Shown here piece by piece: positions 1 to 24,298 of a stretch of DNA of 64,000 bases (position 1 is its first letter; every line of letters begins with the position of its first letter). A program made the position numbers and the translations under genes. Source of the stretch: Dictyostelium discoideum (taxonomy: Eukaryota); assembly GCA_000004695.1 (NCBI GenBank), contig CM000151.3, positions 1,536,001 to 1,600,000 of the forward strand, in the 5' to 3' direction. Under the pieces are notes generated by a model, which had not been told where the DNA came from, made no database searches, and was given only the letters and a program-made list of their open reading frames with translations.

Positions 1-43
1 AGGGTCTAATATTTATATATATATATATTTTTTAAAAAAAAAG
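1..43 (+). other. 3' end of an intron in PKS copy 1; exon resumes at 44 after ...aaaaaaaaag
   Basis: Identical to the 3' part of the complete 78-bp intron seen in the paralogue (10004-10081: gtaagtat...aaaaaaaaag), which splits the KS motif DTACSS|SLNACLLGY. Downstream exon translates in frame from 44 as SLNACLLGYKSIIDGECNYSIVSGCNFIFNP. Confidence 0.6.
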
Positions 44-3000: not shown

Positions 3001-6000
3001 CAATGGCAACGGGTAAAGATAATCAAAATTTAACATTATTCGATAAGGTAGTGAATGGTCAGTTCTATTTCGATAATATTCCAAAATCAGCAATAGAAAG
3101 AGAACAATACCAATATTTATATTGTTATTCTAGATTAATTGCTCAAGTTGGTGATTCACTTTTCGCTAAAATTGTATTAATGTTACCAGATGGAACTGTA
3201 CTATTTAAAACACCATGTGCAGTTTACACTGAAATTAATTCAACAAATAATCAATATAAATTAGAATATCCAAATAATAATTTATATTCAATTGAAAAGC
3301 AATTAATTGATTCTCAATTAAACTCACCATTAATTCAATTTAATCAAATTATTAATTCTTTAGAAAATAATAATAATAATACATACCAATCATTAATTTT
3401 ATTTTATTTATATTCAATTATTAAAAATAATAATAATAATGATTTAACATTAGAAATAATAAATGAAAGTTCAACCGATCAATTAGTTAAAAGTTATTTT
3501 AAAATTAGTGATGATGAAAATGATATAGGAATAATTAATTTATTAAAATCAATATTTGAAATTTTAAAATCAAATATTAATACTTTATTCAAATGTAACA
3601 ATAGTGAAGTAAATAATAAATTAGAAATTAATCAAAAAGATAGTGAAACAATTAATGAATTGATCAAGTTTTTAGTGAATAATAATAAAGAACAACAAGA
3701 ACAACAATTATATACTCCTTATATAAAACAAAATGATATTATTAAAGATATTATAACAAATTCAGTTAAACCAATTTTAAATGAAAAAATTAAATTTAGA
3801 ATATTAGAGATTGGTTGTGGTATTGGTTTATTATCAGAAATCATTATCAATCAAATAAATTTATTATTTAAAGAGAATCCATTATCAGAAATTAGTATCG
3901 AATTCACTTATTCAGATTCAACATTTATACAAGCTGTTAAAGATAAAATTCAACAAATGATTCCAGAATCAACATTATTATCATTTAAAACTTTATTTAA
4001 TACAATTAATGTAAATGAAGATTTATTAGATCAAAATTTCAAACCATCTTATTATGATATTATTATTGTTAATGGTGTTAATTATTTAAATAAAGATAAA
4101 CAACTCAATTCAACAATCAACAATATTAATCAAATTTTAATTTCAAATGGTTATTTAATTATAATGGATACACATTATAAATCAAAAGTAGTCGATAAAC
4201 AAATTGAATTATATGAACAATGGTTATCATTTAATTTTAAATCAAAAAACAACAACAATAATAATAGTTTAACAAATGAACAATGGAATAATTTATTAGT
4301 TAATAAATTAAAATTTAAAGAATTCATATCAACATCATATGAACCATATTTATTAATTGTTCAAAAACCAACAATTGATGAAATCGTATTATCGACTCCA
4401 CAAAATATATCAAAGTTAATATCATCATATGATCAAATTATTAAATTTGATTCAAATTTAGGTCACAAAGATAATATAATTTCAGATATGCTAAACGATG
4501 GTAGTTTTGGTCTTTTAAGAATTACATCAATTGAAGAATTTGAAAAACATGTTGAAGCAAATCCATTGACAGATAGTTCGTTAATTCTTTTCTTTAGTTC
4601 AGTTAACGATTTAAATGAAATTAATTTTAATGAAATTACATTTGAATATATTAAAATCAACCAACATTTATTAAAAACCAAATGTAAATGTAAACATATA
4701 TTAGTTTCAAAGAATTCTCAAACATCTGCTGACGATGAAAATACATGTTCAAACTATTTAGGTACTTCAGTAATTGGTGCATTTAAATACTTTACCGAAT
4801 TTATAGATTTAAATATTTATGCAATTGATTATGGTTCAGATATTTATGAAATTAATTTAAATGATTTAATACTTCATAATGAATTAACAAATCCTTTAAA
4901 ACATATACAAAGAGAATATATTATAAGAGATAATAAAATATATTATGAATTTATAAAGTTAGAATCAAATATTAAAATGAAATATAAATCAAATTCATTC
5001 ATTCAAGATACAAATCAATTAGTATCAAAGATTGTTCCTCAAACATTAGAATTTAAATTATTAGCAAAAAGAGAATTAAAAGAAGATGAAGTCGAAGTTA
5101 AGGTTTTAGCAAGTGGTATTAATTTTAAAGACAATTTAATCTATCGTGGTTTAGTACCAAAAGAAGCAACAAATGAAATAGGTGACTCAACTGATCCACA
5201 AATTGGTTTCGAATGTTCAGGTATTATCACTAGAATTGGTAAAAAAGTAAATAAATTTAAAATTGGTGATTCAGTATTAGGTACTTGTTTTCATACAATG
5301 GCATCACATGTAAATTCAAATCAAGACAGATTTGTATTAAAACCAGATTGTTTATCATATGTCGAAGCTGCTTCAATTCCATTGGTTTATATCACATCAT
5401 ATTATTCATTATTGGTTCAAGGTGGTCTAAATTTAGAAAGAAATGATGAAGAGACTGTTTTAATTCATTCAGGTACAGGTGGTATAGGTTTAGCAGCAAT
5501 TGAAATATTAAAAGCAATTGGATTTAAATCATTATTATTCGTTACAGTTGGTTCAAAAGAAAAAGAACAATTTTTAAGAGATAGATATGGTTCATTTATA
5601 ACTGAAATTTATTCAACTAGAAACATTGACTATGTTAAAGATATAAAAAAGAAAATTAAAGAAATTAAAAAAGGTAAAGGTAAATTACTCACTCAATATG
5701 GTACATTATCATATGGAGTTGATTTAATTTTAAATACTTTATCAATTGAATTTATGGAATCAAATTTTTTACTTTTAAATCAAGGTGGTCGTATCGTTGA
5801 TTTATCAATCACCCATTTATCAACAACTGAAACAACTGATTATAATAAATTTAAATATTTCGTTGGTTATTCAACTGTTGAAGTAGTATCATTAGGTTTC
5901 TCAAAAGTTAAAGACTCACTTCAAATTGTTGTCAATATGATTAAAGATGGAAAATTAAAATTATTACCAATTATTGAATATCCAGTTAGTGAAATTAAAA

Positions 6001-8549
6001 ATGCAGTAGAGTATATTAGTGAAAGAAAACATATTGGTAAAATCGTTGTAAATTTTCAAACTACAAAAGATTTAGTACAAGATATAATTATTAAATCAAA
6101 TAATTCATTTGAAAATAATTATCTATTCCAATCACCTCAATACAATTTAAATAATACAACATTTGGTAATACTATATTAATTACTGGTCAAAAAGGATTA
6201 TCATTAACAATTATTAAATGGATATTATATTATTATCCAAATCAAGATAATAATACCAATAATAGTTTTATTAAAGATATAATAGTTTTATCAAAATCAA
6301 CAATTAATTATGAATTAGAAATTGAAATTGGAAGAGCAAGAAAAAAAGGATTAAAAACAAATATTCATTTTAAACAAGTTGATATTTCAAACAAAAATCA
6401 ATTATTCGAATCAATTGATGAATTATATAAATCAAATAAAGAATTAAAACCAATTGAAACTATATTCCATAATGCATTCGTACCAGTACAATCAGAACCT
6501 GAAGATATTGATTTACAACAATTAGTTGATTCACATGGTGCAAAAATAATTGGCGCAACCAATTTATATGATTATATTACATCAAAAGCTATGGTATTAA
6601 AGAACTATATAATTTCAGCATCAGCAACTTCTATAATGGGTTCAACAAGACAATGTGGTTATTGTTGTGCAAATGCAGTAATTGATTCATTCTCGAAATA
6701 TTTAAGAAGAAAAGGAATTCAATGTTTTTCACTAAAATATTCTCCAATTGAACAAAGTGGATATGTTGCAAGAAATGAATCTGTTGAAAAGCTATTAGCT
6801 TCAACTGGTTTAAATTCAATTTCAATTGGTACAGTTTTAGGTTCAATCGATTTAGCATTACAAAATCAAGATCAACTTAATAATAAATGTATTGTAGGTT
6901 TTGATTTCAAATTATTTTCTAAAAGACCAAATCATCTTCGATATATATTAGATTTCTACACCAATCAATATCAATCAAATAATGATGAATCTAATGATAA
7001 TGACGAATTTTCAATCAAAGATCAAATTTTAAACAAATTTTCAGAGTTATTACAAATTGAAGTTTCAAAGATTAATTTAGATATTAAAATGGTCGACTAT
7101 GGATTAGATTCATTAACAGTTGTAAATTTAAAAACATACTTGGATCAACAATTTTCATTTGGTCCAAATGTTTTATCAATTTCTCAAATTCAAAAAATTA
7201 CAATTGATCAATTATTGAATATTGTAAAAAATGAATTAAATAAAAAATCGAATTATAAAAATAATAATAATAATAAGAAATCAAATCAAAATAAACACAA
7301 ACAAATAATAGGTTCAACAATTAAGTGGGAAAATGAAATAAAATTAGATGATTCAATAATAGTAGATTTAAATGAAGATCAAATTAAAAATTATGAAAAC
7401 AATATTAATAATGAAAATGAAAATATTGTATTATTAACAGATGCAACCAGTTTTATTGGTATTTATTTATTATATGATTTAATAATTTTAGGAAATTATA
7501 AAAATGTTTATTGTTTATTAAATAATAACAATTCAAAAGAAGAAGGATTTAAAACAATCATTCAACTATTAAAAGAATACAAATTATTTGATAAATTAAC
7601 AAATGATCAAATTAATAAAATTGAAATTGTATGTGGTCACTACTCAAAAGAACAGTTTGGAATATCAAATGAAGATTATAATAACTTATCAAATCAAGTT
7701 AATATTATTTTAAATTGTGCAACTGATAGAAATTTAAATAAAAAGTATGAAGAATTTAATGAACAATTAGAAGGTATAAACCAATTTGTTAAATTTTCAT
7801 TCAATAATAAAATTAAGAAATTATTTCATTTATCAGCAATCGGGGTATACCAAGAAGATCCAAATACTGATGATGATTATTATTTACCACCATTGGAATC
7901 AATTGATAATATTAAATCTGGATATTTACAAAATAGAATTGTTCAAGAATATCGTTTAAGAAATGCAAATAAAATTCATGGATTACCAATAATGATAATT
8001 AGATTACCATTTTTATTCTCTGATGATAGTACAGGTATTGGTAGAGATAATGATGTAATTATGCTATTATTACAATCATGTTATATAATGAATACATGGC
8101 CATCAGATTTAGAGAATCAATTATTAAATTTAATACCTGTAACATTTGCAAGCAAATCAATATCATCAATTATTTCATCATTAAATGTTTGGAATCAATG
8201 CAAATCATTATCACCAATTAATAATTTAATTACATTTAATTTAGTTACAAATCAAATTTGTTTAGGTACCATTATGAATCAATTATCAAATGATCTTGGT
8301 TGGCGTAAAATTTCAACATTACAATTCATTAAAAAATTAGATATTTATGATAATGAATCTTGTAAAACATTATCATCTTTTATAAATAAAAAACTTTTCT
8401 TTAGTTTCTTATCTGTTGATGGTCAGTATAATTTTAATCAAGTTGTCAAAAATGAATTAATTTCAAATAATATATTTAATGGTTATAATGTTGATAAAAA
8501 TTCAATAATCAAACATTTAAGTTATACTTTTAAAAAGAAAATATTTTAA
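44..8549 (+). CDS. Type I iterative polyketide synthase, 3' part (5' end lies upstream of the window). Contains a 1-bp frameshift near 987, so it may be a pseudogene or carry a sequencing error
   Basis: KS C-terminal half (ELHGTGTPTGDPIE, GSIKSNIGHLEPASG) reads in frame 1 up to ~987, then continues in frame 0 to the stop at 8547-8549. Approximate domain positions: AT GHSIGEISAAYCSG ~1437; DH HAAKGKALFPGCGY ~2460; C-MeT LEIGCGIGLLSE ~3816; ER LIHSGTGGIGLAAIEIL ~5460; KR ILITGQKGLSL ~6175; ACP DYGLDSLTV ~7087; terminal NAD(P)-reductase (R) domain LLTDATSFIGIYLL ~7430-8540. The frameshift is a missing T in gattttatt(t)ataatc relative to copy 2 (11011-11030). Confidence 0.75.
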
Positions 8550-11500
8550 ATTAAATATTAATAAATATTATTAAAAAATAAAAAACAAACTTTAAAATGT
8601 TTAAAATATTATCCGTATCTTCATTTTTTTTTTTTTTTTGAATCAGATAATGCAATTGTTGCTTCTCCTTAAGATATTTGTTCTCATTTTATTTAAGAGT
8701 TTATAATTCGATAGGCCTTAATTTTTATACATCCTTAAGATGCTGTTTTTTTTTTTTTTGTCTTTAATTTATACATAATAAATTAAAAAAAAAAAAATTA
8801 AAAAAAATAATATATTCGAACTACACTGTTATCAGTCTAAAATAATCCAATTTCTAAACACAAAATATCATTTTGTGTGTGAGATTTTAAATAGATTTTT
8901 TTTTGGGTCGAAATGATAATAGTTTTTTTAAAAAAAAGGTGTTAAAAAAAAAGAATCCGTTTTTTTTGAAAAGATTTTTTTTTTTTAAAAAAAGGTGGTG
9001 TAAAAAAAAAAAGAATTTTTTATTTGTTTTATTGTAATATAATCTTTTTTGCAAATAAGATTTTTTTTTTTAAGAAAAAAAAAAAAGATTTTTCTGGTGA
9101 GGCAAACGTCAAAAAAATTACTTTCACTTTAATTATTAGTTAGTTTTTTTTTTTATATCTGCAAATTAAATAATCTTTTATCAAGTAACACTAATAATTG
9201 CACTTTTTTTAAATCTTCAAAAAAAAATTTTAATCTCTTTCAAAGATTAATAAACAATCACTTTTTATTGTAAGTGTCTTTTGAAAAAAAAAAAAAAAAA
9301 AAAAAAAGAAAAATCTATTTTCATTTAATAAAAAAATAAAATAATTTATTTTCATTCTATTAAACAAAAAAACTATTCTATTTTAAATATTATTATTAAT
9401 TAAATTTAATATTTATTTTTAATTAATTATTTGTTTTTTTTTTTTTCCCATATATATAATGGATATTAAATTAAAAAATAATGATAAATATAGTGACAGA
9501 GATGTTGCGATAATTGGTATTGGCTTTAGATTACCAGGTAATAGTAATCGTGGAACAGAATTATGGCAAAATTTATTGAATGGATTTGATGGTATCGTTG
9601 AAACATCTGATAGATGGTCAGATTCTTTTAAAGATTTAGGTGAAATTCATTGTAAAGATGCTGGTTTAGTAGAGTTGGAGGATTGGGAGTCCTTTGATCC
9701 AATTCATTTTGGTATTAATCCTGCCGAAGCTAAACAAATTGATCCACAACAAAAACTATTATTAAAATCAACATGGGAAGCTTTTGAAGATGCTGGAATT
9801 GATCCATTATCATTACGTGGTACATATACAAGTGTATTCGTTGGTGCATCTGCTTCTGATTACTCAACATCGATGCCAGAGAATTATGAAAAGCCAAACT
9901 TTAATGTTTTCAATTCAACAACTGGTAGTATTGCAAATAGAATATCATATTGTTTTGATTTTCGAGGTCCATCATTAACTGTCGATACTGCATGTTCAAG
10001 TAAGTATTTCTTTTTTTTTTTTCTTTTTTAAAAAGGAAAGGGTCTAATATTTATATATATATATATTTTTTAAAAAAAAAGGTTCATTAAATGCATGTTT
10101 ATTAGGTTACAAATCAATTATTAATGGAGAGTGTAATTATTCAATCGTATCAGGTTGTAATTTTATATTCAATCCCCATATTAGTAGAGGATTTACAACT
10201 ATTAATATCATTGGTAAAAGTGGTAGATGTAAAGCATTCGATGAATCAGCTGATGGTTTTGTACGTGCCGAAGGTGTTGCAGTGTTAATATTAAAAAAGT
10301 TATCAATGGCAATCAATGATGGTGATCAAATTTATTCAATCATTCGTGGTGGTAATTCAAATGTTGATGGTACATTAAATAAAGGTAATTTTATGAAACC
10401 ATCAAAATCTGCACAATCAAATAATATCATTAAAGCATTTGAATCAACAAATGGATCCATTCAACCATCCGATATTGATTTCTTTGAATTACATGGTACT
10501 GGTACACCAACAGGCGATCCGATTGAAGTAGAAGCAGTTTCAGATATTTTTAAGTCTGTCAAATTAAGTTCAAATCCATTATTAATTGGCTCAATTAAAT
10601 CAAATATTGGTCATTTAGAACCAGCATCGGGTGTTGCATCATTAATGAAAATTTGTTTAATGTTTAAACATCGTCAGTTTATTAAAAACATTCATTTTAA
10701 TAAACCAAATGGTGACATTAAATTTGAAGAATGGAAAGTTAAAGTAAGTACAGAGAATACACCATTCCCACAAAACAAACAAGTATCAATTGCAATCAAT
10801 AGTTTTGGTATTACTGGTTCAAATGTTTGTTTGCTATTAAGTGAATATACAAACCAATCTAATGACGCACTTACCATAACATCATCAACATCACCAACAT
10901 TATCAAATGATTTTAAATATTTAATACCAATTTCAGCAAATTCCAAAAAATCATTAGACGATATTAAAGAAGAGTTAATTAATAATTCATCAGAATTATC
11001 AAAGAATTTACCATTTAAAGATTTTATTTATAATCAAATTTATTCAAAATCAACAACATTAATCCAAAGATCAGTTATTTTTGCAAATGATTGGAATGAT
11101 TTAAATTCAAATACTCAAATCATATCAACCAAAGGTAACATGTCTGGCAATTTTGTAAAATCTGCCGAGGATGGTGGTAACCAAAATGATCAAAGCAATG
11201 ATAATATTCTTGTTTTTGTATTTTGTGGCCAAGGACCTCAATGGAATAAAATGGGCAATGAGCTTTATAAAAACTCACCAAAATTCAGAGAAACAATGGA
11301 TTTAATCGATTCAATTTTTGAAAAACATTTTAAATACTCAATTCTATCAAAATTAAGATCAATCCAAGATGATGATAAAATTAGCATTAATGAACCAACA
11401 ATGGCACAATCATCGATTTTAATGATTCAAATATCATTATTTGAATTATATAAACATTGGGGTATTATACCAACAATCATTATAGGTCATTCACTTGGTG

Positions 11501-12023
11501 AAATATCAGCAGCCTATTGTTCAGGTATGATTAACTTAGAAACAGCATGTGAAATCATTTACAAAAGAAGTACACTTCAAAAACAAACAGTTGGATTAGG
11601 TAAAATGTTAGCAATTGGATTAAATGAAAAACAATTTAAAGATCAATTTTCATCATCATCAAATGTTGAAATCGTTTGTTACAATTCACCATCATCAATT
11701 GTTGTTTGTGGTGATGGAATTGAATTAGAAAAAATATCAAATTCATTAAAAGAAAAACAAATATTTTCATTTTTATTAGAATCACCATCACCATACCATT
11801 CATCAAAACAAGAATTAATTAAAGATCAAGTTTTAGAATCAACCAATAATATTAAATCAAACAAACCAAACATTCCAATATTTAGCACAGTAACAGGTGA
11901 ATTATTCAAACTTGGCCAAGACAATCAATTTAATTCTCAATACATATATGAAAATACTAGAAATGCAGTATTATTTGAAAAAGCAATTGAAAACATTTTC
12001 AAATACATTGAAACAAATAATCT

Positions 12024-12159
12024 TGGTAAAAATATTCAATTGGTAAAAATATTCAATTGGTAAAAATATTCAATTGGTAAAAATATTCAATTGGTAAAAA
12101 TATTCAATTGGTAAAAATATTCAATTGGTAAAAATATTCAATTGGTAAAAATATTCAAT
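12024..12159. repeat. Perfect 8x tandem repeat of the 17-bp unit tggtaaaaatattcaat at the PKS copy-2 rearrangement breakpoint
   Basis: Units begin at 12024, 12041, 12058, 12075, 12092, 12109, 12126 and 12143 with no mismatches. The unit is single-copy in copy 1 (1984-2000, cttggtaaaaatattcaat). It introduces the stop that ends ORF 10282..12063. Confidence 0.9.
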
Positions 12160-12160
12160 A

Positions 12161-12690
12161 TTGTAAATTTACCATGTGCAGATAATATCCATTTACCAGT
12201 TTTATTATCTTTATAATTGAATACAACTCTATATTCATTTTTACCACTTGAATAAATGTTTGTGGTTAAACATTGTTTAATTCCTTCGATTAATTGTAAT
12301 GGTGATTTAAATTCCATACTATGAATTGTTAAATCTTGGTTTGGGAATGCTCTTAAAACATTATCAATATAACCACAACCTGGAAATAATGCTTTACCTT
12401 TTGCTGCGTGACCTTTTAAAAATCTAAATGGTTCTTCTGCAATATCAATATATGATGTATATGATATAAATGGTGATTGTTCATTACGAATACCAAGTTG
12501 ATTAGTTGAAAAACCATTCTTTTTATAATTAAATACCGATTGTGATTGAGTGAAATAAATTCCATCATCAAATTTATAATGTGGTAAATAATAAGATGCT
12601 TTTTTAAATTGAATAGTTTCATTTCTGCTTGGTTCATTTAATTGACTTTTAAAATTAACATTATTAAAATGACAATTTTCATATATGTAT
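12161..12690 (-). other. Inverted fragment of the PKS DH-domain region embedded in copy 2
   Basis: attgtaaatttaccatgtgcagataatatccatttaccagttttattatc is the reverse complement of copy-1 2671-2720. The fragment end ttgacttttaaaattaacattattaaaa is the reverse complement of copy-1 ~2207-2234. Confidence 0.8.
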
Positions 12691-15600
12691 TGACAATTAT
12701 ATACTCCTTATATAAAACAAAATGATATTATTAAAGATATTATAACAAATTCAGTTAAACCAATTTTAAATGAAAAAATTAAATTTAGAATATTAGAGAT
12801 TGGTTGTGGTATTGGTTTATTATCAGAAATCATTATCAATCAAATAAATTTATTATTTAAAGAGAATCCATTATCAGAAATTAGTATCGAATTCACTTAT
12901 TCAGATTCAACATTTATACAAGCTGTTAAAGATAAAATTCAACAAATGATTCCAGAATCAACATTATTATCATTTAAAACTTTATTTAAAACTATTAATA
13001 TAAATGAAGATTTATTAGATCAAAATTTCAAACCATCTTATTATGATATTATTATTGTTAATGGTGTTAATTATTTAAATAAAGATAAACAACTCAATTC
13101 AACAATCAATAATATCAATCAAATTTTAATTTCAAATGGTTATTTAATTATAATGGATACACATTATAAATCAAAAGTAGTCGATAAACAAATTGAATTA
13201 TATGAACAATGGTTATCATTTAATTTCAAATCTAACAACAACAACAATAATGATAATTTAACAAATGAACAATGGAATAATTTATTAGTTAATAAATTAA
13301 AATTTAAAGAATTCATATCAACATCATATGAACCATATTTATTATTTGTTCAAAAACCAACGATTGATGAAATCGTATTATCAAGTCAACAAAAGATATC
13401 AAAGTTAATATCATCATATGATCAAATTATTAAATTTGATTCAAATTTAGGTCACAAAGATAATATAATTTCAGATATATTAAATGATGGTAGTTTTGGT
13501 GTTGTAAGAATTACATCAATTGAGCAATTTGAAAAACATGTTGAAACAAATCCATTGACAGATAACTCGTTAATTCTTTTCTTTAGTTCAGTTAACGATT
13601 TAAATGAAATTAATTTTAATCAAGTTACATTTGAATATATTAAAATCAATCAATATTTATTAAAGACCAAATGTAAATGTAAACATATATTAGTTTCAAA
13701 GAATTCTCAAACATCTGCTGACGATGAAAATACATGTTCGAATTATTTAGGTACTTCAGTAATTGGTGCATTTAAATACTTTTCAGAATATATTGATTTA
13801 AATATATATTCAATCGATTATGGTTCAGATATTTATGAAATTAATTTAAATGATTTAATACTTCATAATGAATTAACAAATCCTTTAAAACATATACAAA
13901 GAGAATATATTATAAGAGATAATAAAATATACTATGAACATTTAAAATTAGAATCAAATATTAAAATGAAATATAAATCAAATTCATTCATTAAAGATAC
14001 AAACAAATTAATGACAAAAGTTGAACCTCAAACATTAGAATTTAAATTATTAGCAAAAAGAGAATTAAAAGAAGATGAAGTCGAAGTTAGGGTTTTAGCA
14101 AGTGGTATTAATTTTAAAGACAATTTAACTTATCGTGGTTTAGTACCAAAAGAAGCAACAAATGAAATAGGTGATTCAACTGATCCACAAATTGGTTGGG
14201 AATGTTCAGGTATTATCACTAGAATTGGTAAAAAAGTAAATAAATTTAAAATTGGTGATTCAGTATTAGGTACTTGTTTTCATTCAGTAGCATCACATGT
14301 AATTACAAATCAAGATAGATTTGTATTAAAACCAGATTGTTTATCATATGTCGAAGCTGCTTCAATTCCATTGGTTTATATCACATCATATTATTCATTA
14401 TTGGTTCAAGGTAATTTGGATTTTGAGGGTGATGAAGAGACTGTTTTAATTCATTCAGGTACAGGTGGTATAGGTTTAGCAGCAATTGAAATATTAAAAG
14501 CAATTGGATTTAAATCATTATTATTCGTTACAGTTGGTTCAAAAGAAAAAGAACAATTTTTAAGAGATAGATATGGTTCATTTATAACTGAAATTTATTC
14601 AACTAGAAATACTGACTATGTTCAAGATATAAAAAAGAAAATTAAAGAAATTAAAAAAGGCAAAGGCAAATCACTCACTCAATATGGTACCTTATCATAT
14701 GGAGTTGATTTAATTTTAAATACTTTATCAATTGAATTTATGGAATCAAATTTTTTACTTTTAAATCAAGGTGGTCGTATCGTTGATTTATCAATCACCC
14801 ATTTATCAACAACTGAAACAACTGATTATAATAAATTTAAATATTTCATTGGTTATTCAACTGTTGAAGTTATGACACCAAGTTTCTCAAAAGTTAAAAA
14901 AACACTTCAAATTGTTGTCAATATGATTAAAGATGGAAAATTAAAATTATTACCAATTATTGAATATTCAGTTAGTGAAATTAAAAATGCAGTAGAGTAT
15001 ATTAGTGAAAGAAAACATATTGGTAAAATCGTTGTAAATTTTCAAACTACTGAAAATGTAGTACAAGATTCAATTATTAAATTAAATAATTCATTTGAAA
15101 ATAATTATCTATTCCAATCACCTCAATACAATTTAAATAATACAACATTTGGTAATACTATATTAATTACTGGTCAAAAAGGATTATCATTAACAATTAT
15201 TAAATGGATATTATATTATTATCCAAATCAAGATAATAATACCAATAATAGTTTTATTAAAGATATAATAGTTTTATCAAAATCAACAATTAATTATGAA
15301 TTAGAAATTGAAATTGGAAGAGCAAGAAAAAAAGGATTAAAAACAAATATTCATTTTAAACAAGTTGATATTTCAAACAAAAATCAATTATTCGAATCAA
15401 TTGATGAATTATATAAATCAAATAAAGAATTAAAACCAATTGAAACTATATTCCATAATGCATTCGTACCAGTACAATCAGAACCTGAAGATATTGATTT
15501 ACAACAAATTATTGATTCAAATAGTGCAAAAACAATTGGTGCAATCAATTTATATGATTATATTAGTTCAAAAGCTATGGTATTAAAGAATTATATAATT

Positions 15601-18600
15601 TCATCATCAATGGCATCTGTAATGGGTTCAACAAGACAATGTGGTTATTGTTGTGCAAATGCAGTAATTGATTCATTCTCGAAATATTTAAGAAGAAAAG
15701 GAATTCAATGTTTTTCATTAAAATATTCAATAATTGAACAAAGTGGATATGTCGCAAGAAATGAATCTGTTGAAAAGCTATTTACAACCACTGGTTTAAA
15801 TACTATTTCAATCGGTACAGTTTTAGGTTCAATCGATTTAGCATTACAAAATCAAGATCAACTTAATAATAAATGTATTGTAGGCTTTGATTTTCAACTA
15901 GTTTCTAAAAGATCAAATCATCTTCAATATAAATTAGATTTCTATACCAATCAATATCAATCAAATAATGATGAATCTAATGATAATGATGAATTTTCAA
16001 TCAAAGATCAAATTTTAAATAAATTTTCAGAGTTATTACAAATTGAAGTTTCAAAGATTAATTTAGATATTAAAATGGTCGATTATGGATTAGATTCATT
16101 AACAGTTGTAAATTTAAAAACATACTTGGATCAACAATTTGTAATCGGACCAAATGTTTTATCAATTTCTCAAATTCAAAAAATTACAATTAATCAGTTA
16201 ATTAATTTTGTAAAAAATGAATTAAATAAAAAATCAAATTATAAAAATAATAATAATAATTTAAATAAAAATAAGAAATCAAATCAAAATAAACAGAAAC
16301 AAATAATAGGTTCAACAATTAATTGGGAAAATGAAATAAAATTAGATGATTCAATAATAGGTTTAAATGGAAATCAAATAATTTTTAATAATGAAAATGA
16401 AAATATTGTATTATTAACAGATGCAACTAGTTTTATTGGTATTTATTTATTAAATGATTTAATAATTTTAGGAAATTATAAAAAAGTTTATTGTTTAATA
16501 AATAATAACAATTCAAAAGAAGAAGGATTTAAAACAATCATTCAACTATTAAAAGAATACAAATTATTTGATAAATTAACAAATGATCAAATTAATAGAA
16601 TTGAAATTGTATGTGGTCACTACTCAAAAGAACAATTTGGAATATCAAATGAAGACTATAATAACTTATCAAATCAAGTTAATATTATTTTAAATTGTAC
16701 AACTGATAGAAATTTAAATAAAAAGTATGAAGAATTTAATGAACAATTAGAAGGTATAAACCAATTTGTTAAATTTTCATTAAAAAATAAAATTAAGAAA
16801 TTAATTCATTTATCAGCAATTGGAGTTTATCAAGAAGATCCAAATACTGATGATGATTATTATTTACCACCATTGGAATCAATTGATAATATTAAATCTG
16901 GATATTTACAAAATAGAATTGTTCAAGAATATCGTTTAAGAAATGCAAATAAAATTCATGGATTACCAATAATGATAATAAGATTACCATTTTTATTCTC
17001 TGATAATAACACAGGTATTGGTAGAGATAATGATATTGTTATGCTATTATTACAATCTTGTTATCTAATGAATACATGGCCATCGGAATTAGAGAATCAA
17101 TTTTTAAATTTAGTACCGGTAACATTTGCGAGCAAATCGATATCATCAATAACCATATCTTCAAATGTTTGGAATCAATGTAAATCATTATCACCAATTA
17201 ATAATTTAATTACATTTAATTTAATTGTTGATCATATTTCTTTTGGTACCATTATGAACCAATTATCAAATGATCTTGGTTGGCGTAAAATTTCAACATT
17301 ACAATTCATTAAAAAATTAGATATTTATGATAATGAATCTTGTAAAACATTATCATCATTCATAAAGAATCAAAATTTCTTTAATAGTTTATCTATTGAT
17401 GGTCAGTATAATTTTAATCAAGCTATCAAAAATGAATTAATTTCAAAAAATATATTTAATGGTTATAATGTTGATAAAAATTCAATAATCAAACATTTAA
17501 GTTATACTTTTAAAAAGAAAATATTATAAACTAAATATAAAAAAATTAAAAAAACACAGTCAAAGGTTTGTGTTTTTTTATTTTTTATTAATTAAAATCA
17601 AGTTTTTTTTTTTTTTTTTTTTTCGCCATTTTTAAAATTTTTTTTTTCTTTCTTTTTTTTATTTATTTTCTTATTCTTTTAAATAGACACTGGAGAAGTT
17701 TTGTTTTTTTTTTGATGAATAAAAAAAAAAAAAATAAAAAATTTAAAAAAAAAAAACCATCATTGAAACTAAGGGTAAAAGTATTACTTTTAAATTCAAA
17801 ATAAAAAATAAAAATAATACCAAATAAAATAAAACCACAACCAAAAATAAAAAAAAAAAAAATTAAAAATTAATTTAATGAAATTTTGTAAAATTAAATT
17901 CGATAAATTAATTTTTAATTTTATATCTAATTCTAAACTTTAGATTTTTACCAAACCAGCATAACTCAATTTTATAAAATTCTTTATACTTTTTTTTTTT
18001 TTAAAAACTTCTCAAATATATTTTTTTTTTTATAATACCCATACCACTTCAGCACCTTGTGAATATATTTTTTTTTTCTAATAATATAAAAAAAATTTTA
18101 ACACATCCAAATTGATCAGTTTTCTCAAAATGGCTAAATTTTTGATCAAAAAAAAAAAAAAAAAAGCATTGGAGTATAGGTTGTTTGGTTACCCCTAAGT
18201 AAATTGGGTGAAAAAAAAAAAGTAGTTTGGTATTACTGAACACACAATGTTGTGTTTACATATAAATATATAATAAAAAAATAATAATTAAAAAAAAAAA
18301 TAATTAAAAAAAAAATAATTAAAAAAAAAATAATTAAAAAAAATTATATAATTGAAAAAAAAAAAAAAAAAGAACACCACACCCAAAATAATTTTCTTTC
18401 TTTTAAAAAAAAAAATTAATTATAAACAATAAATAAACATTAAGAGAAAGAAAATTAAAAAAAGAAAATAAATATCGCATCAGGGAAATCACCGATGCAA
18501 TTTTCGTCATCAAAACAATCAAAAAATAAATTTTTTAAAAAATTCACAAAAAAAAAAAATTTCAAAAACCAAAATTTTTTTTTTTTTTTTTTTTTTTTTA

Positions 18601-18644
18601 TTCATTATTTCAAACCTTAACAAAAGGAAAATCTTCACACCAAA

Positions 18645-19097
18645 ATGAATAAACTCGACATGGACGCATGTCAAATTTATGATCCTGAAGAGTTTGATGC
18701 ATGTAGGTGTGAAGAAATTTATTATAGTAGTAGTTCAAATGGTGATATTATTAATCCACAAGCAATCAGCGATCTAATCTTCAATGCTTTTCAAAATTTA
18801 GAAATTCATAATCCTGTGTGGGCAGAACGAGCTATTGAAATACTCAAAACAGTATATGAAGATACAAATAATTTTCTTTCTCGAAAAAATCTAGATTGTG
18901 GTAATGAATTTAAGGTTGCAATTACTAATCTAATACGTTGTCTCGAAATAAGGAAAAATTTAACCAGTTTTTTCGATTCATTGGATGATTTAATATCAAT
19001 ATTACAAGAGCTTGCTGAAGTACTCCCTCAAGATTATTGGGATTTTATAGATGCTATTGAAGGTGTTTTGATTGGCCTCTTTGAAATTCCAGATTAA
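18645..19097 (+). CDS. Hypothetical 150-aa protein, single exon
   Basis: Clean ATG-to-TAA ORF. Codon usage is noticeably less AT-biased than the flanks (CTC, CGA, GGC, AGG codons), and there is an A-rich leader before the ATG. No recognisable motif. Confidence 0.45.
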   Translation: MNKLDMDACQIYDPEEFDACRCEEIYYSSSSNGDIINPQAISDLIFNAFQNLEIHNPVWAERAIEILKTVYEDTNNFLSRKNLDCGNEFKVAITNLIRCLEIRKNLTSFFDSLDDLISILQELAEVLPQDYWDFIDAIEGVLIGLFEIPD

Positions 19098-19164
19098 AAA
19101 CTGTTATTCACTCAAGATGTAACATAAATAGTTTAACTGTTTTTTTATTTTATATTAAAAATAA

Positions 19165-19270
<106 letters not shown>

Positions 19271-19449
19271 GAAAAAAATGAAAATAAAAATAGAATAATA
19301 ATAATAAAAATAAAAATAAAAATAAAAAAAATATTAAAAATTAAAATAAAAATAAAAATAAAAATAAAATAAAATTAAATTAAAACGGTTTAAGATTAAA
19401 AAGATTATTAACATATATGCTTTTTCTGTAAGATTATAATATATTTTAT

Positions 19450-21501
19450 TTAAATATTTTTTAAGTTATCATAAAGTGAATTAATAAAATTACCAGAACA
19501 TAATTTTAAATTATTATTTTTAATTAAATTTTCAAAACACAATTGATTTTCAATTATATTATAATTATTATAATATGTGTAAATTGTTGTTGATTTTGGT
19601 AATGGAAATTTAAATTTACACATAGCACTAAATAAAATTAAATGATTAATTGATGGTTTTAACCAATCACTTGATATTGTACCTTGAAAAGTTGGACCTA
19701 ATGATAAACAAGTTAAAGAATCTGGTAAATTTGGTAGATTTAATTGATTTAATGGTTGATTTAATTTTAAAGAACGTAATGAATTTGGAAATATTTTAAA
19801 ATCTATAACTTCTTGAATACCATAACCTAATTCAATATTTGTTAATGTATTTGGAAATATTACTCTACTAATTGGATGCTTAAAATGGTAATCAAATATT
19901 ATTGATTTTAAATTTTTCATATTCATAAATACTTTTGGTGTTAATTTTTCATTTTTATAACTTGAAAATTTAATTGATACAATTGATGTTGAAAAGTGAT
20001 CACATTCAAATTGATCTTTAAAATGACTCGTAATTGTTAACGATCTTAATGAGTTACATTTTATTAAACATTGATTATATGGACCTTCATATTGTGTTAA
20101 ATTTAATAATTGATTTGAAAATAGTGATGTTAAAGATTGTTCTTCTGATAAATGTATTTTTGAATGTTGAGGTTGTAATTCTGGTGAAACCAATTTTGGT
20201 TCTATAATTTTCAATGATTTAATTGAAGTTGGTAAATCATCATATTGTAATAAAAGTTTTTTAGTATATAATAAAACGTATGTTAATTCTAACGATTCAA
20301 GATTCTTTAAAAATGGTTTTAAATTTCTGAGTGATTGACTACAACTAATTGATAAATGTTTTAAAGTTGTCGGTATTGATTTAATGGGGGATTTAAAACA
20401 ATGTTCACCAAAAATTAAAGTTTCCAATGATGGCGGTAACTCATCAACTTCTAATTGATGATTGAATTTACAATCAATTGAAAATATTAATTCTTTTAAT
20501 GAGTTTGGAAGTGTAAATTTTTTAAATTTCTTATCAAATTCTCTACCAATATAAAGCTTTTCTAATTTATTTGTATTTAAAAAACAATAGTTATTTAAAG
20601 ATTTATTAAATGATTCACCAAATTTTAAAACTTTTAATTCTTTTGGTAATACATTCTTTCCAATTTCACAATTAAAATGATAACCAAATTCTAAAAAAGT
20701 AATTGATGATGGTAAACAACCTTCATTAATCTCTGTATTAAATGAATCACCAAATGTTAAACTTGTTAAACTATTTGGTAATAAACCCCTAAATAACTTT
20801 TCATTATAAAAATCTGCAAATAACAATTCTTTTAAATTATTTGGTAATTTTTTAATTTCACATTTATGATAATTACTATATCCACTTTTATTCTTTTGAC
20901 CAAAATCTAAATATCTTAATTTATTTGATGATTCATTAATACTACCATTACCACTACCATTGCCACTACCATTACCATTACCATTGCCACTACCATTACC
21001 ACTACCATTGCCACTACAATTACCACTACCACCTTCTAAAGATTGAATAAATGGTATAGTTTTAAAAGATAATTGATCATTTAAAATTAAAGATTTTATA
21101 TTTGAATGAATTGAATCATTTGAAAATGATGAATAAAATGAACCAACAAATTCTAGTGATGTTACTGAACGAGGTATGAACCCAGATTTAAAAATATTTG
21201 CTGATGGTCGATGTGAACTATTTTCAATTTCAACTGTATCAATATTCTCTGGTAATGATTCTAATATTGATAATACTCTTTGAAGATTATTTATATTTTT
21301 TTTACCACCAATAAAAAAATAAACCCTTTTCAAATACATTTTATATGGATAGTTTAACCAATATTGATATTCTTTATCTGTATTTATTTTGAAATCAACC
21401 CTATTAAAATTATTTAAAAAAATCATTTCCTTAAATATAAGATTTCTAATATATACATTTCTCCATAGTAAAAAAAATAAAAAATCATTATTATTTTCCA
21501 T
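19450..21501 (-). CDS. FNIP-repeat-containing protein (683 aa) with an internal (GSGN)n low-complexity stretch
   Basis: Many ~22-residue repeats of the form LPxSLxxLxFGxxFNxxI (for example LPNSLTSLTFGDSFNTEINEGCLPSSITFLEFGYHFNCEIGKNVLP), typical of the Dictyostelium FNIP repeat family. Single uninterrupted ORF on the minus strand. Confidence 0.8.
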   Translation of the reverse strand: MENNNDFLFFLLWRNVYIRNLIFKEMIFLNNFNRVDFKINTDKEYQYWLNYPYKMYLKRVYFFIGGKKNINNLQRVLSILESLPENIDTVEIENSSHRPSANIFKSGFIPRSVTSLEFVGSFYSSFSNDSIHSNIKSLILNDQLSFKTIPFIQSLEGGSGNCSGNGSGNGSGNGNGNGSGNGSGNGSINESSNKLRYLDFGQKNKSGYSNYHKCEIKKLPNNLKELLFADFYNEKLFRGLLPNSLTSLTFGDSFNTEINEGCLPSSITFLEFGYHFNCEIGKNVLPKELKVLKFGESFNKSLNNYCFLNTNKLEKLYIGREFDKKFKKFTLPNSLKELIFSIDCKFNHQLEVDELPPSLETLIFGEHCFKSPIKSIPTTLKHLSISCSQSLRNLKPFLKNLESLELTYVLLYTKKLLLQYDDLPTSIKSLKIIEPKLVSPELQPQHSKIHLSEEQSLTSLFSNQLLNLTQYEGPYNQCLIKCNSLRSLTITSHFKDQFECDHFSTSIVSIKFSSYKNEKLTPKVFMNMKNLKSIIFDYHFKHPISRVIFPNTLTNIELGYGIQEVIDFKIFPNSLRSLKLNQPLNQLNLPNLPDSLTCLSLGPTFQGTISSDWLKPSINHLILFSAMCKFKFPLPKSTTIYTYYNNYNIIENQLCFENLIKNNNLKLCSGNFINSLYDNLKNI

Positions 21502-21877
21502 AAATTTTTAGTTTTTTAAAATTTATTGTTAGAAAAAAAAAAAAAAAAAAAAAAGTATAAAAAATTGATTATAAAAATTTATTTTTAGAAAAAAAAAAAA
21601 AATGAAAAATAAAAAAAATAAAAAAAAAAACCAAAATAAAAATAAAAATAAAAATTAAAAAAGAGGTGGTTTTTTTACTTAAAAAATTAATAACGACGGT
21701 TACAAACTTGGTTTGTTTCAGATTTTTTTTTTTTTTTTTAGTTTTATTTTTATTTGTTGATTTATTTTTAGATATTTTTGTTTTTTATTTACTTAAAATT
21801 TTTTGACTTTGTATAAACCAGATATTTTTATTATTATTTTACAAATCAAAAAAAAAAATTTCTTCTTTTTTTTAACC

Positions 21878-23973
21878 CTATAAAATTTCGGTTAAAAAAA
21901 AAAAGATAAAAAAAAACAATTGGATAAATAAAAATAAAAAATATAAAAATAAAAAAAAAAATATTATTATTAATGTGCAATTATTATTAATATTTATTTT
22001 AATTTCTTTTTTTTTATCATAAATTGAATTAATAAAATTATCAGAGCATATTTTTAAATTATTATTTTCAATTAAATTTTCAAAATAAAATTGATTTTCA
22101 ATGACATTATAATTATTAAAAGATATGTAAATTGTTGTTGATTTTGGTAATGGAAATTGAAATTTACAATCAACACACAATAAAATTAAATGATTAATTG
22201 ATGGTTTTAACCAATCACTTGATATTGTACCTTTGAAATTTGAACCTAATGATAAACAAGTTAAAGAATCTGGTAGATTTGGTAACGTTAATTGATTAAA
22301 TTCAACCAATTTTAAAGAACGTAATGAATTTGGAAATATTTTAAAATCAATGATTTCTTTAATACCAAAACCAAATTCAATATTTGTTAATGTATTTGGA
22401 AATATTATCCCACCAATTTGTTGAATATAATAATGACTACTGAATATCACTGATTATAAATTCTTCATTTTTGTAAAAACCTTGGGGGTTAAATGTTCAA
22501 AGGCAAGGCTTAAAAATTCGATTGATTTAATTAATGACGAAAAGTGATCACATTGATAATGATTTGTGAAATGATTTGTTATCTTTAATGATCTTAATGA
22601 ATTTGATTTTTTTAAAAACAAGTTATATGGACCTTCATAATTTTTTAATTTTAATAATTTATTTGAAAATAGTGAGCTTAAAGATTGATCTTCCAACTGC
22701 ACCTGTTCTTGATTTGAATATGGATGCGACTGTGTTGAGACTAATCTCGGTTCAATTATTTAATGAAAATCAGTATCATTCAATATCCTTCTAACCAAAG
22801 GCACTAAAAATGATGTTAATTCTAATTTTTTAAGATTCTTTAAAAATGGTGATACATTCTCAATTGATTGACTACAATTTATTGATAAATATTTTAAAGA
22901 TATTGGCAAAGACTCAATTTCCGATTTAAAATATCGCTCACCAATAATTAAAGTCTTTAACGATGGAGGTAACACACCAACTTCCAATGGGTGATTGAAT
23001 TTACAGCCAATTGAAAATACCAACTCTTTTAATGATTTTGGGAATGTAAATTCGATAAACTCACCTTGATATTCTCTACCAAGATAAAGTTTCTTCAATT
23101 TATTTCTATTATAAAAACATTGTCTTGTACTTAAAGATTTATTGAATAGTTCACCAAATTTTAATATTTTTAATCTCTTTGGTAATACATTCTTCCCAAT
23201 TTCACAATTAAAATGGTATCCAAATTCTAAATAAGTGATTGACGATGGTAAACAACCTTCACCAATCTCTGTATTAAATGAATCACCAAATGTTAAACTT
23301 GTTAAACTTTTTGGTAGAAATACTTTACCTATCTCTTGATTGAAAAAGTTTGGTAATAACAATACTTTTAAATTTTGTGGTAACCTTTTAACTTCATATA
23401 TACTTTTTTTAAAACTATCTATACTTTTATTCTTTTTACCAAAATCCAAATACTGTAAATGACTACCACCACTACTACTACCACTACAATTGCCACCCTC
23501 TAGACATTCAATAAATGGTATAGTTTTAAAGATAATTGATCATTTAGAATTAAAGATTTTAAATTTGAATGAATTGAATTTTTTGAAAATGGTGAACTAA
23601 ATGAACCAATTAATTCTAGTGATGTTACTGAACGAGGTATGAAGCCAGGATTAAATATATTACATATAGGTATTATTGAATTTGTTTCAATTTCAACTGT
23701 ATCAATATTCTCTGGTAATGATAATAATGTCAATATCAATCTTTGAAGATCAAAAATTCTAAGACCTTGAAAACTAATAAAGAACCTGACCCTTTTCAAA
23801 TAAATTTTATATTTATAATCTAACCAATATTGATATTCTTCATTTGTATTTATTTTGAAATTAACTTTTCTAAATATACTAAATAATTTCAATTCATTGA
23901 TTATAACTTTTCTTAAAACTATATTTCTCCAAATTGAAAAAAATAATTTATCATTATAATTTTCTAAATTCAT
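21878..23973 (-). pseudogene. Decayed tandem paralogue of the FNIP-repeat gene
   Basis: N-terminus (23973..23500: MNLENYNDKLFFSIWRNIVLRKVI...FKINTNEEYQYWLDYKYKIYLKRV) parallels the intact gene. Homology continues through ORFs 22760..23449, 22454..22702 and 21878..22450 in three different frames. A 1-bp deletion at ~23540 (ttttaaag versus ttttaaaag) truncates the first ORF, and the C-terminal stop is lost. Confidence 0.7.
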
Positions 23974-24254
23974 TTTTTATTAATTATGTATATAAAAAAA
24001 ATAAAAAAAATAAAAAAAATTTGAAAATGAATTTTATGAAAAACCAACCTGAAAATTGATGAGAAATAAAAAAAAAAGCATGGAAATAAAAAACTAAATT
24101 TTTAATAAACCTTTTATTTTATTTTTTTTTTTTTTTCTTTTTATTTTTTTATTTATGATTTATAAATAAAAAAAAAAAATGAAGTTTTATTTAGATTTAT
24201 AGTTATTTTTTTTTTTATTTTTTTTTTTTGTTTGTAATTATTAATGTTAATGGT

Positions 24255-24298
<44 letters not shown>

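Follow-up and report, generated by a model that had tools for sequence, protein, structure and literature searches.

Of two highly reducing type I polyketide synthase (PKS) genes that lie in tandem on Dictyostelium discoideum chromosome 2, adjoining DDB_G0272164, the downstream one has very probably been made a pseudogene by a genuine, recent and complex rearrangement that is private to the NC4-derived laboratory lineage (AX4/AX2). A 1.7-kb ancestral stretch, from the end of the AT domain to the start of the C-MeT domain, was replaced by a 17-bp tandem array, an inverted block and a short filler. The mechanism that we infer, with about even confidence, is one episode of serial template switching; related templated repair also fits.

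The window, a stretch of 64,000 nucleotides that was analysed whole, is DNA of a 22% G+C genome with many repeats. It opens within the KS intron of the upstream PKS gene (copy 1), and the following features were located in it; L003 denotes a positional orthologue of the downstream gene (copy 2).

1 to 8549, plus strand: PKS copy 1, from open reading frames and Pfam domains.
9459 to 9999, plus strand: copy 2 exon 1, the N-terminal part of KS, ending in the active-site DTACSS (Pfam ketoacyl-synt, E = 4e-45).
10000 to 10081, plus strand: copy 2 intron (GTAAGT...AG), whose removal gives an open 840-aa frame.
10082 to 12040, plus strand: block A of copy 2, holding the remainder of KS and an AT without its last ~50 residues, collinear with copy 1 44-2001.
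11937 to 11955, plus strand: source of the 19-nt filler, with two substitutions private to the copy 2 lineage.
12024 to 12159, plus strand: array of eight perfect TGGTAAAAATATTCAAT units, one ancestral and seven added (119 bp), from Tandem Repeats Finder and exact positions.
12160 to 12669, minus strand: inverted block, the N-terminal half of DH, from BLAST to copy 1 2207-2716 and L003 2320-2827 (PKS_DH_N, E = 1.5e-5).
12670 to 12693, minus strand: junction filler, 5 nt (TGACA) of ambiguous origin and then a 19-nt inverted copy of 11937-11955.
12693 to 17529, plus strand: block C of copy 2, with the domains cMT-ER-KR-ACP-R, matching copy 1 collinearly from position 3704 onwards.
18645 to 19097, plus strand: neighbour gene DDB_G0272164, a 100% match to the D. 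discoideum AX4 protein.

Copy 1 had the domain order KS(C-terminal part)-AT-DH-cMT-ER-KR-ACP-R. Copy 1 and the orthologues carried the arrangement that defines the PKS family, KS-AT-DH-(cMT)-ER-KR-ACP on one polypeptide, with Pfam matches to KS_C, KAsynt_C_assoc, AT, Methyltransf_23, ADH_N/ADH_zinc_N, KR, ACP and NAD_binding_4. The DH domain was supported by PKS_DH_N, by PDB 9nju (D. discoideum PKS16, E = 8e-56) and by the CurF DH 3kg6. The domain set of copy 2 was equal to that of copy 1, but its order was broken. The splice junction of copy 2 exon 1 was read from the sequence and the spliced frame was checked; removal of the 82-nt intron gave a frame of 840 aa, equal in length to the gene model in a second assembly, GCA_054883475.1. 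Block C was open from 12694, with the first ATG at 12946 and an ORF of 1527 aa. Copy 1, used by the first-pass annotation as the intact reference, is itself frameshifted, which was overlooked there: at about 986, TTT has become TT by a private 1-nt deletion (from alignment against copy 2 and L003 and as read in the window assembly alone), which splits its frame into 244-1020 and 1098-8549.

Searches with the window ORFs 10282-12063, 12946-17529 and 1098-8549 found no exact-sequence match on record, the homologous-protein search yielded nothing above ~1035 aa and no PKS entry from AX4, and literature searches on DDB_G0272164 and the neighbouring PKS genes brought up nothing usable. We take the two copies to lie, perhaps, in the pks10-12 range. 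In the supplements to PMC3188802, gene IDs neighbouring the locus are placed at about 1.35-1.40 Mb on chromosome 2.

BLAST resolved copy 2 into three blocks: 10039-12040 matched copy 1 1-2001 (96.7%), 12160-12669 matched the reverse complement of copy 1 2716-2207 (95.7%, without an internal indel), and 12693-17554 matched copy 1 3704-8578 (95.3%). The order of segments across the lesion was direct, inverted, inverted, direct, with two deletions and with junctions at 12159/12160, 12669/12670, 12674/12675 and 12692/12693. The first-pass annotation had described eight exact 17-bp tandem units that are single-copy in copy 1, followed by an inverted DH piece and a return to collinearity at C-MeT, and this description was confirmed apart from the details corrected below. 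Tandem Repeats Finder reported 12023-12159 (period 17, 8.1 copies, 100% matches, score 274), with units starting at 12024, 12041 and so on to 12143, and the unit occurred once in copy 1, at 1985. The first, ancestral unit (12024-12040) belongs to block A. Each joint between units creates the palindrome CAATTG, and the last unit abuts the inverted block with no ancestral downstream sequence left between them. The reading frame of copy 2 met a stop codon at 12061-12063, within the third unit, in agreement with the earlier view that copy 2 is unable to encode a full enzyme. A predicted truncated KS-AT product would also miss the last ~50 residues of AT. The Pfam AT match, which starts at profile position 1 (of 319) in each copy, runs to 303 in copy 1 but only to 256 in copy 2.

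The inverted block, put at ~530 bp in the first-pass annotation, was real but measured 510-511 bp (508-510 bp of ancestral DH sequence). It held an uninterrupted 170-codon minus-strand frame that includes an HxxxGxxxxP motif, and it matched PKS_DH_N profile positions 18-98 of 103 with the catalytic-His motif LKGHAAKGKALFPGCGY intact. The N-terminal sequence of DH, previously taken to be missing, is therefore the inverted block itself, and it is the C-terminal half of DH that was lost. The lost parts were the last ~50 AT residues with the AT-DH linker, and the C-terminal half of DH with the linker to C-MeT. The loss amounted to 205 + 986 = about 1.19 kb relative to copy 1, rather than ~1.5 kb as first estimated, and to 197 + 1003 bp relative to the true orthologue, for a net length change of -1050 bp. 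The lost segments were absent elsewhere within the 64-kb window; the sequence loss is genuine, and the deleted segments were not relocated within the window.

The 19-mer TCAATACATATATGAAAAT occurred only at 11937-11955 on the plus strand and 12675-12693 on the minus strand (0 chance matches expected, 100 shuffles). It had been read as microhomology at the distal junction; instead it is an inverted templated insertion. It was copied from copy 2's own sequence, from a site 720 bp upstream of the insertion and 87 bp ahead of the array. The filler matched copy 2 at 19/19 positions, compared with 17/19 in the orthologue L003 and 16/19 in copy 1, and was therefore copied in cis from copy 2. The preceding TGACA (12670-12674) had no unique template. 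Base 12693 is the last base of the filler and is common to filler and block C, and the octamer TGACAATT recurs at 12690-12697. Judged against copy 1 and L003, the switch points showed microhomology of 0-1 nt at junctions J2 and J3b, and of 1 nt where units adjoin; at a distance of 1 nt past J3b there is an imperfect AATTA.

To place these observations in the lineage, the locus was compared with GCA_054883475.1 (contig JBTAPE010000001.1), which is among the de novo Nanopore + Illumina assemblies of PMC12745789. From their near-identity and the strain list of that study, this genome (L002) is probably AX2-214 and the window AX4. Over window positions 8643-29133 the two were 99.78% identical; the only differences were in the lengths of homopolymers and at a few SNPs, one of which (15242 C/A) lies in copy 2. 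Over 11900-12800 they were 100% identical, with exactly eight units. Three models were called independently in the annotation of the second assembly: one for KS-AT (840 aa), one of 213 aa on the minus strand and one of 1527 aa. The structure was thus present base for base in an independent assembly that shares its junctions and its eight units and differs elsewhere, and it is therefore real in this lineage. AX4 and AX2 both derive from the isolate NC4, so their agreement covers the NC4 lineage and not natural populations.

The first-pass annotation had allowed for an assembly artefact in a region of near-identical paralogues. Such an artefact would be due to mis-joined paralogue reads or to rearrangement, in E. 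coli, of an unstable AT-rich clone. The paralogues are 95-97% identical, the genome is repeat-rich with a G+C content of 22%, and perfect short tandem arrays are a classic signature of artefacts. Against these considerations stand the separate de novo long-read genome and the inverted block, which was as diverged from copy 1 (95.7%) as its flanks were and was closer to the orthologues of copy 2. The block is therefore copy 2's own DH and not misplaced reads of copy 1. An artefact is consequently as good as refuted. Recent gene conversion from copy 1 was also rejected as the source of the block, which was no closer to copy 1 than its flanks.

Orthologous loci were fetched using DDB_G0272164 as the anchor. 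The orthologous PKS was intact and collinear in four other isolates, two of them diverged D. discoideum, one D. cf. discoideum and one D. citrinum. The positional orthologue L003 had one open frame (ORF 340-8664, a 3014-aa model) with the 17-bp unit once, and its identity was 96.4-97.2% to copy 2 versus 93.5% to copy 1. The D. citrinum locus (L006) was full-length and collinear and also held the unit once, L004 and L005 were collinear across breakpoint BP4 with models of 3013 and 3018 aa, and the D. cf. discoideum protein P0001 was continuous through breakpoint 1. The relatives' alignments to copy 2 all ended exactly at 12693. The unit was single-copy in L001, L003 and L006 and reached eight copies only in the window and L002. 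Judged from these sequence comparisons, the ancestral gene was collinear and intact, and the lesion is derived and private to the NC4-derived lineage. Relative to the intact orthologues, copy 2 retained its intron, as a duplicated (non-processed) pseudogene does, and had a frame disrupted by the stop codon, the inverted half of DH and 1.2 kb of missing sequence.

The 74 private substitutions of copy 2 comprised 43 synonymous and 31 non-synonymous changes, with dN/dS of about 0.18. They created no stop codon, compared with 5.2 expected if neutral (P = 0.006), the other indels of copy 2 were all multiples of 3, and the 170 codons of the inverted block have stayed open. Copy 2 therefore lacked the marks of relaxed selection (dN/dS near 1, stops and frameshifts), because inactivation would have been too recent to leave a neutral signature and not because function was retained. 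The upper bound since inactivation was about 43 neutral substitutions (0.6%). The lesion is evidently recent in evolutionary terms, as the first-pass annotation had argued from the perfect 17-mers, and this is now indicated independently of them.

An origin by slippage or template switching, also proposed earlier, fits the anatomy of the lesion. In the reading that we favour at about even confidence, a nascent strand growing rightwards would have stalled at ancestral position 2122 (L003 coordinates throughout) and slipped back repeatedly on the 17-mer. At 2827 it would then have changed over to the opposite (lagging-strand) template, which it copied leftwards as far as 2320. Still on that template and heading the same way, it would have jumped to 2037-2019 before returning to the original template at 3831. 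Such a single switching path would explain the order and orientation of both inverted pieces, both deletions and the end of the array at the first breakpoint. A single-event origin is not provable from the end product, and the array could have grown from two to eight units later by slippage. A hairpin or cruciform driver was rejected: the J2 palindrome CAAT/ATTG and the junction folded no better than shuffles (z = -1.6 and -0.95). The direct quasi-repeat TGGTAAA...CAAT, shared by the unit and the high end of the DH block, would give a deletion or duplication and not an inversion, and was considered coincidental.

Breakage and religation offer another, rather unlikely, route to the same structure. 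A region of about 1.7 kb would have suffered three or four double-strand breaks, after which its middle was religated inverted and the flanks were lost, and PolQ-like fill-ins would supply the 19-nt filler and the first 17-bp duplication. An inverted copy of 19 nt taken from within a few hundred bp is generally regarded as typical of snap-back templated insertions, and junction microhomology of 0-1 nt suits classical non-homologous end joining. D. discoideum keeps classical NHEJ (PMC6635534), and the PolQ-related proteins that it encodes are reported only as polymerase-only proteins of putative function (PMC7515707). Yet several simultaneous breaks in 1.7 kb and separate processes for array and filler are needed, end joining does not usually add 17 nt seven times over, and the order and orientation of the inverted pieces as one excursion (2827 to 2320, then 2037 to 2019) are left unexplained. 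The improbability is somewhat greater for a stepwise history, in which an inversion-deletion with filler came first and the array arose by later slippage at the new junction. Two 17-bp copies would make further expansion easy, and repeated slippage or homogenisation would be expected to yield eight perfectly identical units. The array also folds into many weak alternative registers around an unstructured centroid (z = -4.5), with the palindrome at each joint. However, no intermediate was seen among the two NC4-derived assemblies and the intact relatives, the eight units in both NC4-derived assemblies indicate that the array was stable over decades of separate laboratory culture, and the end of the array coincides exactly with the breakpoint, a match that would have to be fortuitous if the duplication were later and unrelated.

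The lesion is, from all that the DNA itself indicates, without function: the predicted frame is cut after KS and a clipped AT, and the open cMT-ER-KR-ACP-R frame is orphaned. That the lesion is tolerated or used is very improbable. A GTAAAA donor in the array could be spliced to a downstream AG to give an in-frame protein without DH; blocks A and C lie in the same absolute frame, and 13 stop-free in-frame GT...AG combinations were found with donors at 12026, 12043 and 12060. The hypothetical introns are 711-930 nt long, however, compared with 82 nt for the gene's own, GT/AG pairs are common by chance in this DNA, the predicted product would have no DH at all and would also be missing the C-terminus of AT and the beginning of the MT region, and the gene prediction of the second assembly does not splice across the lesion. 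Splice rescue was therefore rejected as an explanation. Both flanking frames are still open, which is explained by recency. The inverted block could instead provide antisense RNA against the paralogous PKS, being 95.7% complementary to the DH-coding sequence of copy 1 over 510 nt, but copy 1, the obvious target, is itself frameshifted. There is only a slight chance that copy 2, with promoter, exon 1 and intron intact, is still transcribed and that the 510-nt antisense feeds the Dictyostelium RNAi machinery and silences the upstream paralogue, and possibly other pks genes, in trans. If true, the pseudogene would be a trans-acting silencer of related PKS genes.

The lesion was compared with known classes of rearrangement. 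Complex rearrangements formed by fork stalling and template switching (FoSTeS) or microhomology-mediated break-induced replication (MMBIR) were reportedly described by Lee, Carvalho and Lupski in 2007 and by Hastings et al. in 2009. Like these, the lesion has more than one cis junction clustered at one locus, direct and inverted joins, deletions interleaved among retained pieces, a short templated insertion from nearby (the filler with its copy 2-private substitutions) and a path readable as template switches. It differs in its size, spanning about 2 kb of a single gene where the others span kb to Mb, in the 7-fold iterated 17-nt slippage product at its first switch point, and in its host, an amoebozoan with a 22% G+C genome; the literature search found no comparable dissected event in such an organism. 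Classical FoSTeS/MMBIR junctions have microhomology of 2-5 nt or more, unlike the 0-1 nt found here. This minimal microhomology lowers the claim to FoSTeS/MMBIR membership, not the claim of polymerase template switching.

Pol theta scars are PolQ-dependent short templated inserts, usually under 50 nt, with microhomology of 2 nt or more. The 19-nt inverted copy from a few hundred bp off the junction fits this class, and the recurrence of the octamer in the filler suggests repeated priming attempts. In contrast, the 508-bp inverted segment and the 119-bp array of seven added 17-mers far exceed typical inserts, and the expected microhomology is absent. In a minisatellite generated by slippage, the number of head-to-tail copies varies among individuals; the array showed eight perfect head-to-tail copies in both carrier genomes (n = 2, both NC4-derived).

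Within D. discoideum, PMC9618038 describes 5 of about 40-45 pks genes as pseudogenes 'interrupted by stop-codons'. Copy 2 is like these in family, organism and interrupted-frame outcome; the structure of their lesions is not given in the portions of the literature found. The tgrB/C hotspot, described in the same genome set (PMC12745789), shows duplications, inversions and gene fragments that differ between close isolates. Copy 2 resembles it as a structural difference between closely related Dictyostelium isolates. Unlike the large, recurrent and allorecognition-tied changes at tgrB/C, the copy 2 lesion is single and small and is confined to one lineage, with four relatives intact. It is an ordinary pseudogenisation by a known kind of mutation, of which it is a clean instance, and not new biology. 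Its scar is unusually legible because little time has passed since the event and close relatives still show the ancestral sequence.

These results mean that the odd structure in the reference is genuine NC4/AX2/AX4 DNA, and that annotators and engineers should treat copy 2 as dead; copy 1 is probably to be treated as dead as well. AX2 and AX4, as standard laboratory strains, are without a PKS that diverged D. discoideum isolates, the cryptic sister species and D. citrinum all have in intact form, and a polyketide made by the intact enzyme would be missed in natural-product screens based on AX2/AX4. Read as the trace of serial template switching that stuttered where the fork stalled, the scar documents such an event in the wild state of an extremely AT-rich genome, and it can help to calibrate models of rearrangement for AT-rich eukaryotes. 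The pks family, according to PMC3188802, has undergone rapid lineage-specific turnover, and copy 2 illustrates concretely the birth-and-death process that has been inferred for it.

The window, with a G+C content of about 22% and abundant homopolymers, carries two highly reducing type I polyketide synthase (PKS) genes. Its ORF 18645-19097 matches DDB_G0272164 (D. discoideum AX4, chromosome 2) with 100% identity, and the IDs of adjacent genes put this part of the chromosome at roughly 1.35-1.40 Mb. The Pfam domains of the PKS pair are KS, AT, methyltransferase, ER (ADH_N/ADH_zinc_N), KR, ACP and a terminal NAD_binding_4 reductase. Copy 2 was aligned to copy 1 as follows.

PKS copies and aligned blocks (window coordinates)
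Up to 8549 (start lies before the window): PKS copy 1, head to tail with copy 2
9459-17529: PKS copy 2
9459-9999: first exon of copy 2, normal
10000-10081: intron of copy 2, 82 nt, GTAAGT...AG
10039-12040: copy 2 block matching copy 1 1-2001 (96.7%)
12160-12669: copy 2 block matching the reverse complement of copy 1 2716-2207 (95.7%, without internal indel)
12693-17554: copy 2 block matching copy 1 3704-8578 (95.3%)

The first two blocks of copy 2 are joined by a tandem array at 12023-12159 (TRF: period 17, 8.1 copies, 100% identity). Starts of the 17-bp unit run from 12024 to 12143 at 17-nt intervals, against a single occurrence in copy 1, which agrees with the eight perfect units described in the first-pass annotation. 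The inverted dehydratase (DH) fragment that it reported was likewise found, at 12160-12669 and not at the proposed size of ~530 bp. Between the inverted block and resumed collinearity lies a 24-nt filler, TGACAATTTTCATATATGTATTGA, whose last 19 nt match 11937-11955 exactly in reverse complement; the 19-mer has no further occurrence in the 64 kb, and a chance match is not expected. What had been taken for microhomology at the distal junction is an inverted templated insertion.

The loss relative to copy 1 was 205 + 986 bp, or ~1.2 kb rather than ~1.5 kb. It comprises the last ~50 residues of the AT with the AT-DH linker, and the C-terminal half of the DH with the linker to C-MeT; neither segment was found elsewhere within the 64-kb window. 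The AT profile was covered at positions 1-256 of 319 in copy 2 versus 1-303 in copy 1 (Pfam). The N-terminal half of the DH, previously listed as missing, is the inverted block itself, which matched PKS_DH_N positions 18-98 of 103 (E = 1.5e-5, just under the Pfam cutoff), still has 170 open codons and keeps the catalytic-His motif LKGHAAKGKALFPGCGY. For the corresponding segment of copy 1, alignments were obtained with the D. discoideum PKS16 structure (9nju, E = 8e-56) and with the dehydratase of CurF (3kg6).

AX2-214 and AX4 both derive from isolate NC4. A separate de novo assembly, GCA_054883475.1 (L002; contig JBTAPE010000001.1, 3.6 Mb), was reached via the neighbour gene DDB_G0272164, and its locus begins at window position 8643. 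Its accession series fits the ten de novo Nanopore and Illumina Dictyostelium assemblies of PMC12745789, and we infer that it is AX2-214 and the window AX4, because no other strain of that study is near AX4. Identity over 8643-29133 was 99.78%. Besides one 14-nt indel and changes in homopolymer length, the 17 differences comprise a few SNPs, among them a non-synonymous C/A SNP at 15242 in the 1527-aa ORF of copy 2. A SNP cluster and the 14-nt indel (ATGGTAATTTTTTT) lie at 24236-24269, in an intergenic T-rich stretch. Since the two assemblies differ elsewhere, they are independent data. Over 11900-12800 they agree base for base, with exactly eight units. The rearrangement is genuine, and the suggestion of an assembly artefact is refuted.

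Orthologous loci were located in five more genomes, with DDB_G0272164 and the adjoining FNIP-repeat gene as anchors.

Orthologous loci (breakpoint 1 is the array side; breakpoint 4 is the resumption at 12693)
L003, GCA_054859385.1, a diverged 'D. discoideum': PKS beside the anchor, one open frame 340-8664, 3014-aa model, collinear throughout
L004, a second D. cf. discoideum: 3013-aa model, collinear through breakpoint 4
L005, another 'D. discoideum': 3018-aa model, collinear through breakpoint 4
L006, D. citrinum, GCA_054859145.1: PKS collinear over its full length, unit present once
L001, D. cf. discoideum, GCA_054859205.1: single PKS remnant carrying deletions of its own (2.6 kb and 0.6 kb), breakpoint 1 read straight through

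With 96.4-97.2% identity to copy 2 and 93.5-95.5% to copy 1, the L003 PKS is nearer to the former; it has the 17-mer once. All alignments to copy 2 end at 12693, and by BLAST the D. citrinum PKS is full-length and collinear at 87-88% identity. The collinear gene is therefore ancestral and the rearrangement derived; among seven genomes, only the window and L002 carry it. The D. citrinum gene (12102-21747) is annotated at 3180 aa, ~165 residues longer than in discoideum-clade isolates, with no Pfam hits on record. In L001 the same locus (9280-17612) has decayed independently. The remnant lacks equivalents of copy 1 2548-5174 and 6791-7413 and is annotated as split models of 181, 517, 939 and 111 aa; a stray 400-bp PKS fragment lies past the neighbour gene (17211-17611).

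The rearrangement in L003 coordinates
2122/2123: breakpoint 1
2123-2319: first deletion
2320-2827: inversion
2828-3830: second deletion
3831: collinearity resumes

The derived strand reads plus to 2122, seven extra 17-mers, minus 2827 to 2320, five ambiguous nt, minus 2037 to 2019, and plus from 3831. The two inverted pieces are ordered and oriented as a single uninterrupted excursion along the opposite template would leave them, and the array ends exactly at breakpoint 1, which is what serial template switching within a fork predicts. This is probably the mechanism: a fork would have stalled at the first breakpoint, stuttered over the last 17 nt before the stall, switched to the lagging-strand template ahead of it and copied backward, skipped once along that template and returned to the original one. 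The template-switching or slippage origin proposed earlier fits the piece order and the array end; the microhomology of only 0-1 nt speaks against strict membership in FoSTeS/MMBIR. Multi-break end joining with PolQ-like fill-in is a less likely route. Dictyostelium keeps classical NHEJ, and PolQ-related genes of the polymerase-only type are present; this route would take a larger number of independent steps, and the order of the pieces does not follow from it. The array may also have grown later, by slippage.

At the junction of the last 17-mer with the inverted block (12140-12176) there is an imperfect 32-nt palindrome, TGGTAAA...CAAT/ATTG...TTTACCA, owing to the likeness between the 17-mer and TGGTAAATTTACAAT, the ancestral sequence at the high end of the DH block. 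Its fold was not significant (z = -1.6), such a direct quasi-repeat would not alone yield an inversion, and single-strand folding revealed no strong driver of the rearrangement.

Substitutions private to copy 2, polarised with copy 1 as outgroup, numbered 74 (43 synonymous, 31 non-synonymous; dN/dS ~0.18). Stops arise from ~7% of random single-base changes in copy 2 codons; none was found versus 5.2 expected if all 74 were neutral (P = 0.006), and neutral decay therefore accounts for at most ~43 substitutions, or 0.6%. The remaining indels of copy 2 all have lengths divisible by 3. The filler matched copy 2 at 19/19 positions, L003 at 17/19 and copy 1 at 16/19, and includes two copy 2-private substitutions; the event was therefore later than part of copy 2 divergence and was templated in cis. 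It is recent on an evolutionary scale, as first proposed, yet predates the AX2/AX3 split.

The copy 2 frame ends at a stop at 12061-12063, consistent with the earlier view that no full enzyme can be encoded. The predicted product would be an 840-aa KS with a C-terminally clipped AT, a model independently predicted in L002, and a 1527-aa downstream frame (cMT-ER-KR-ACP-R) is orphaned. In-frame GT...AG bypasses of the lesion, with introns of 711-930 nt, are purely hypothetical. The rearrangement is derived, recent and non-functional. A 1-nt deletion private to copy 1 shortens TTT to TT at ~986 (975-1000; equivalent to copy 2 11027), where copy 1 reads GATTTTATT-ATAATC versus GATTTTATTTATAATC in copy 2 and L003. 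It cuts the copy 1 frame into 244-1020 and 1098-8549; dN/dS on the copy 1 branch was ~0.55. This 'intact reference' may itself be a pseudogene, or else ~986 may be a reference base-call error; if the deletion is real, both PKS copies would be dead in the window lineage.

Elsewhere in the window, a second FNIP-repeat paralogue (21878-23973, minus strand) lies in four consecutive ORFs (190, 82, 229 and 157 aa), and L003 and L005 have one 667-aa gene model at the orthologous position. It may be decaying in the window lineage too, or the breaks may be introns. Long tandem repeats with periods of 249, 120 and 132 nt (64-86% identity) occupy 30371-31471 (minus strand), where the G+C content of the window is highest (32%), within a large EGF_CA/cEGF-repeat protein gene (1363-aa model in L002 and L005).

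For D. discoideum, PMC9618038 reports ~40 pks genes, of which five are pseudogenes 'interrupted by stop-codons', and lineage-specific turnover of the family is known (PMC3188802). No description of the structure of the copy 2 lesion was found in the literature searched. The lesion is a new, well-resolved case, of a mutation class and a pseudogene class that are already known.
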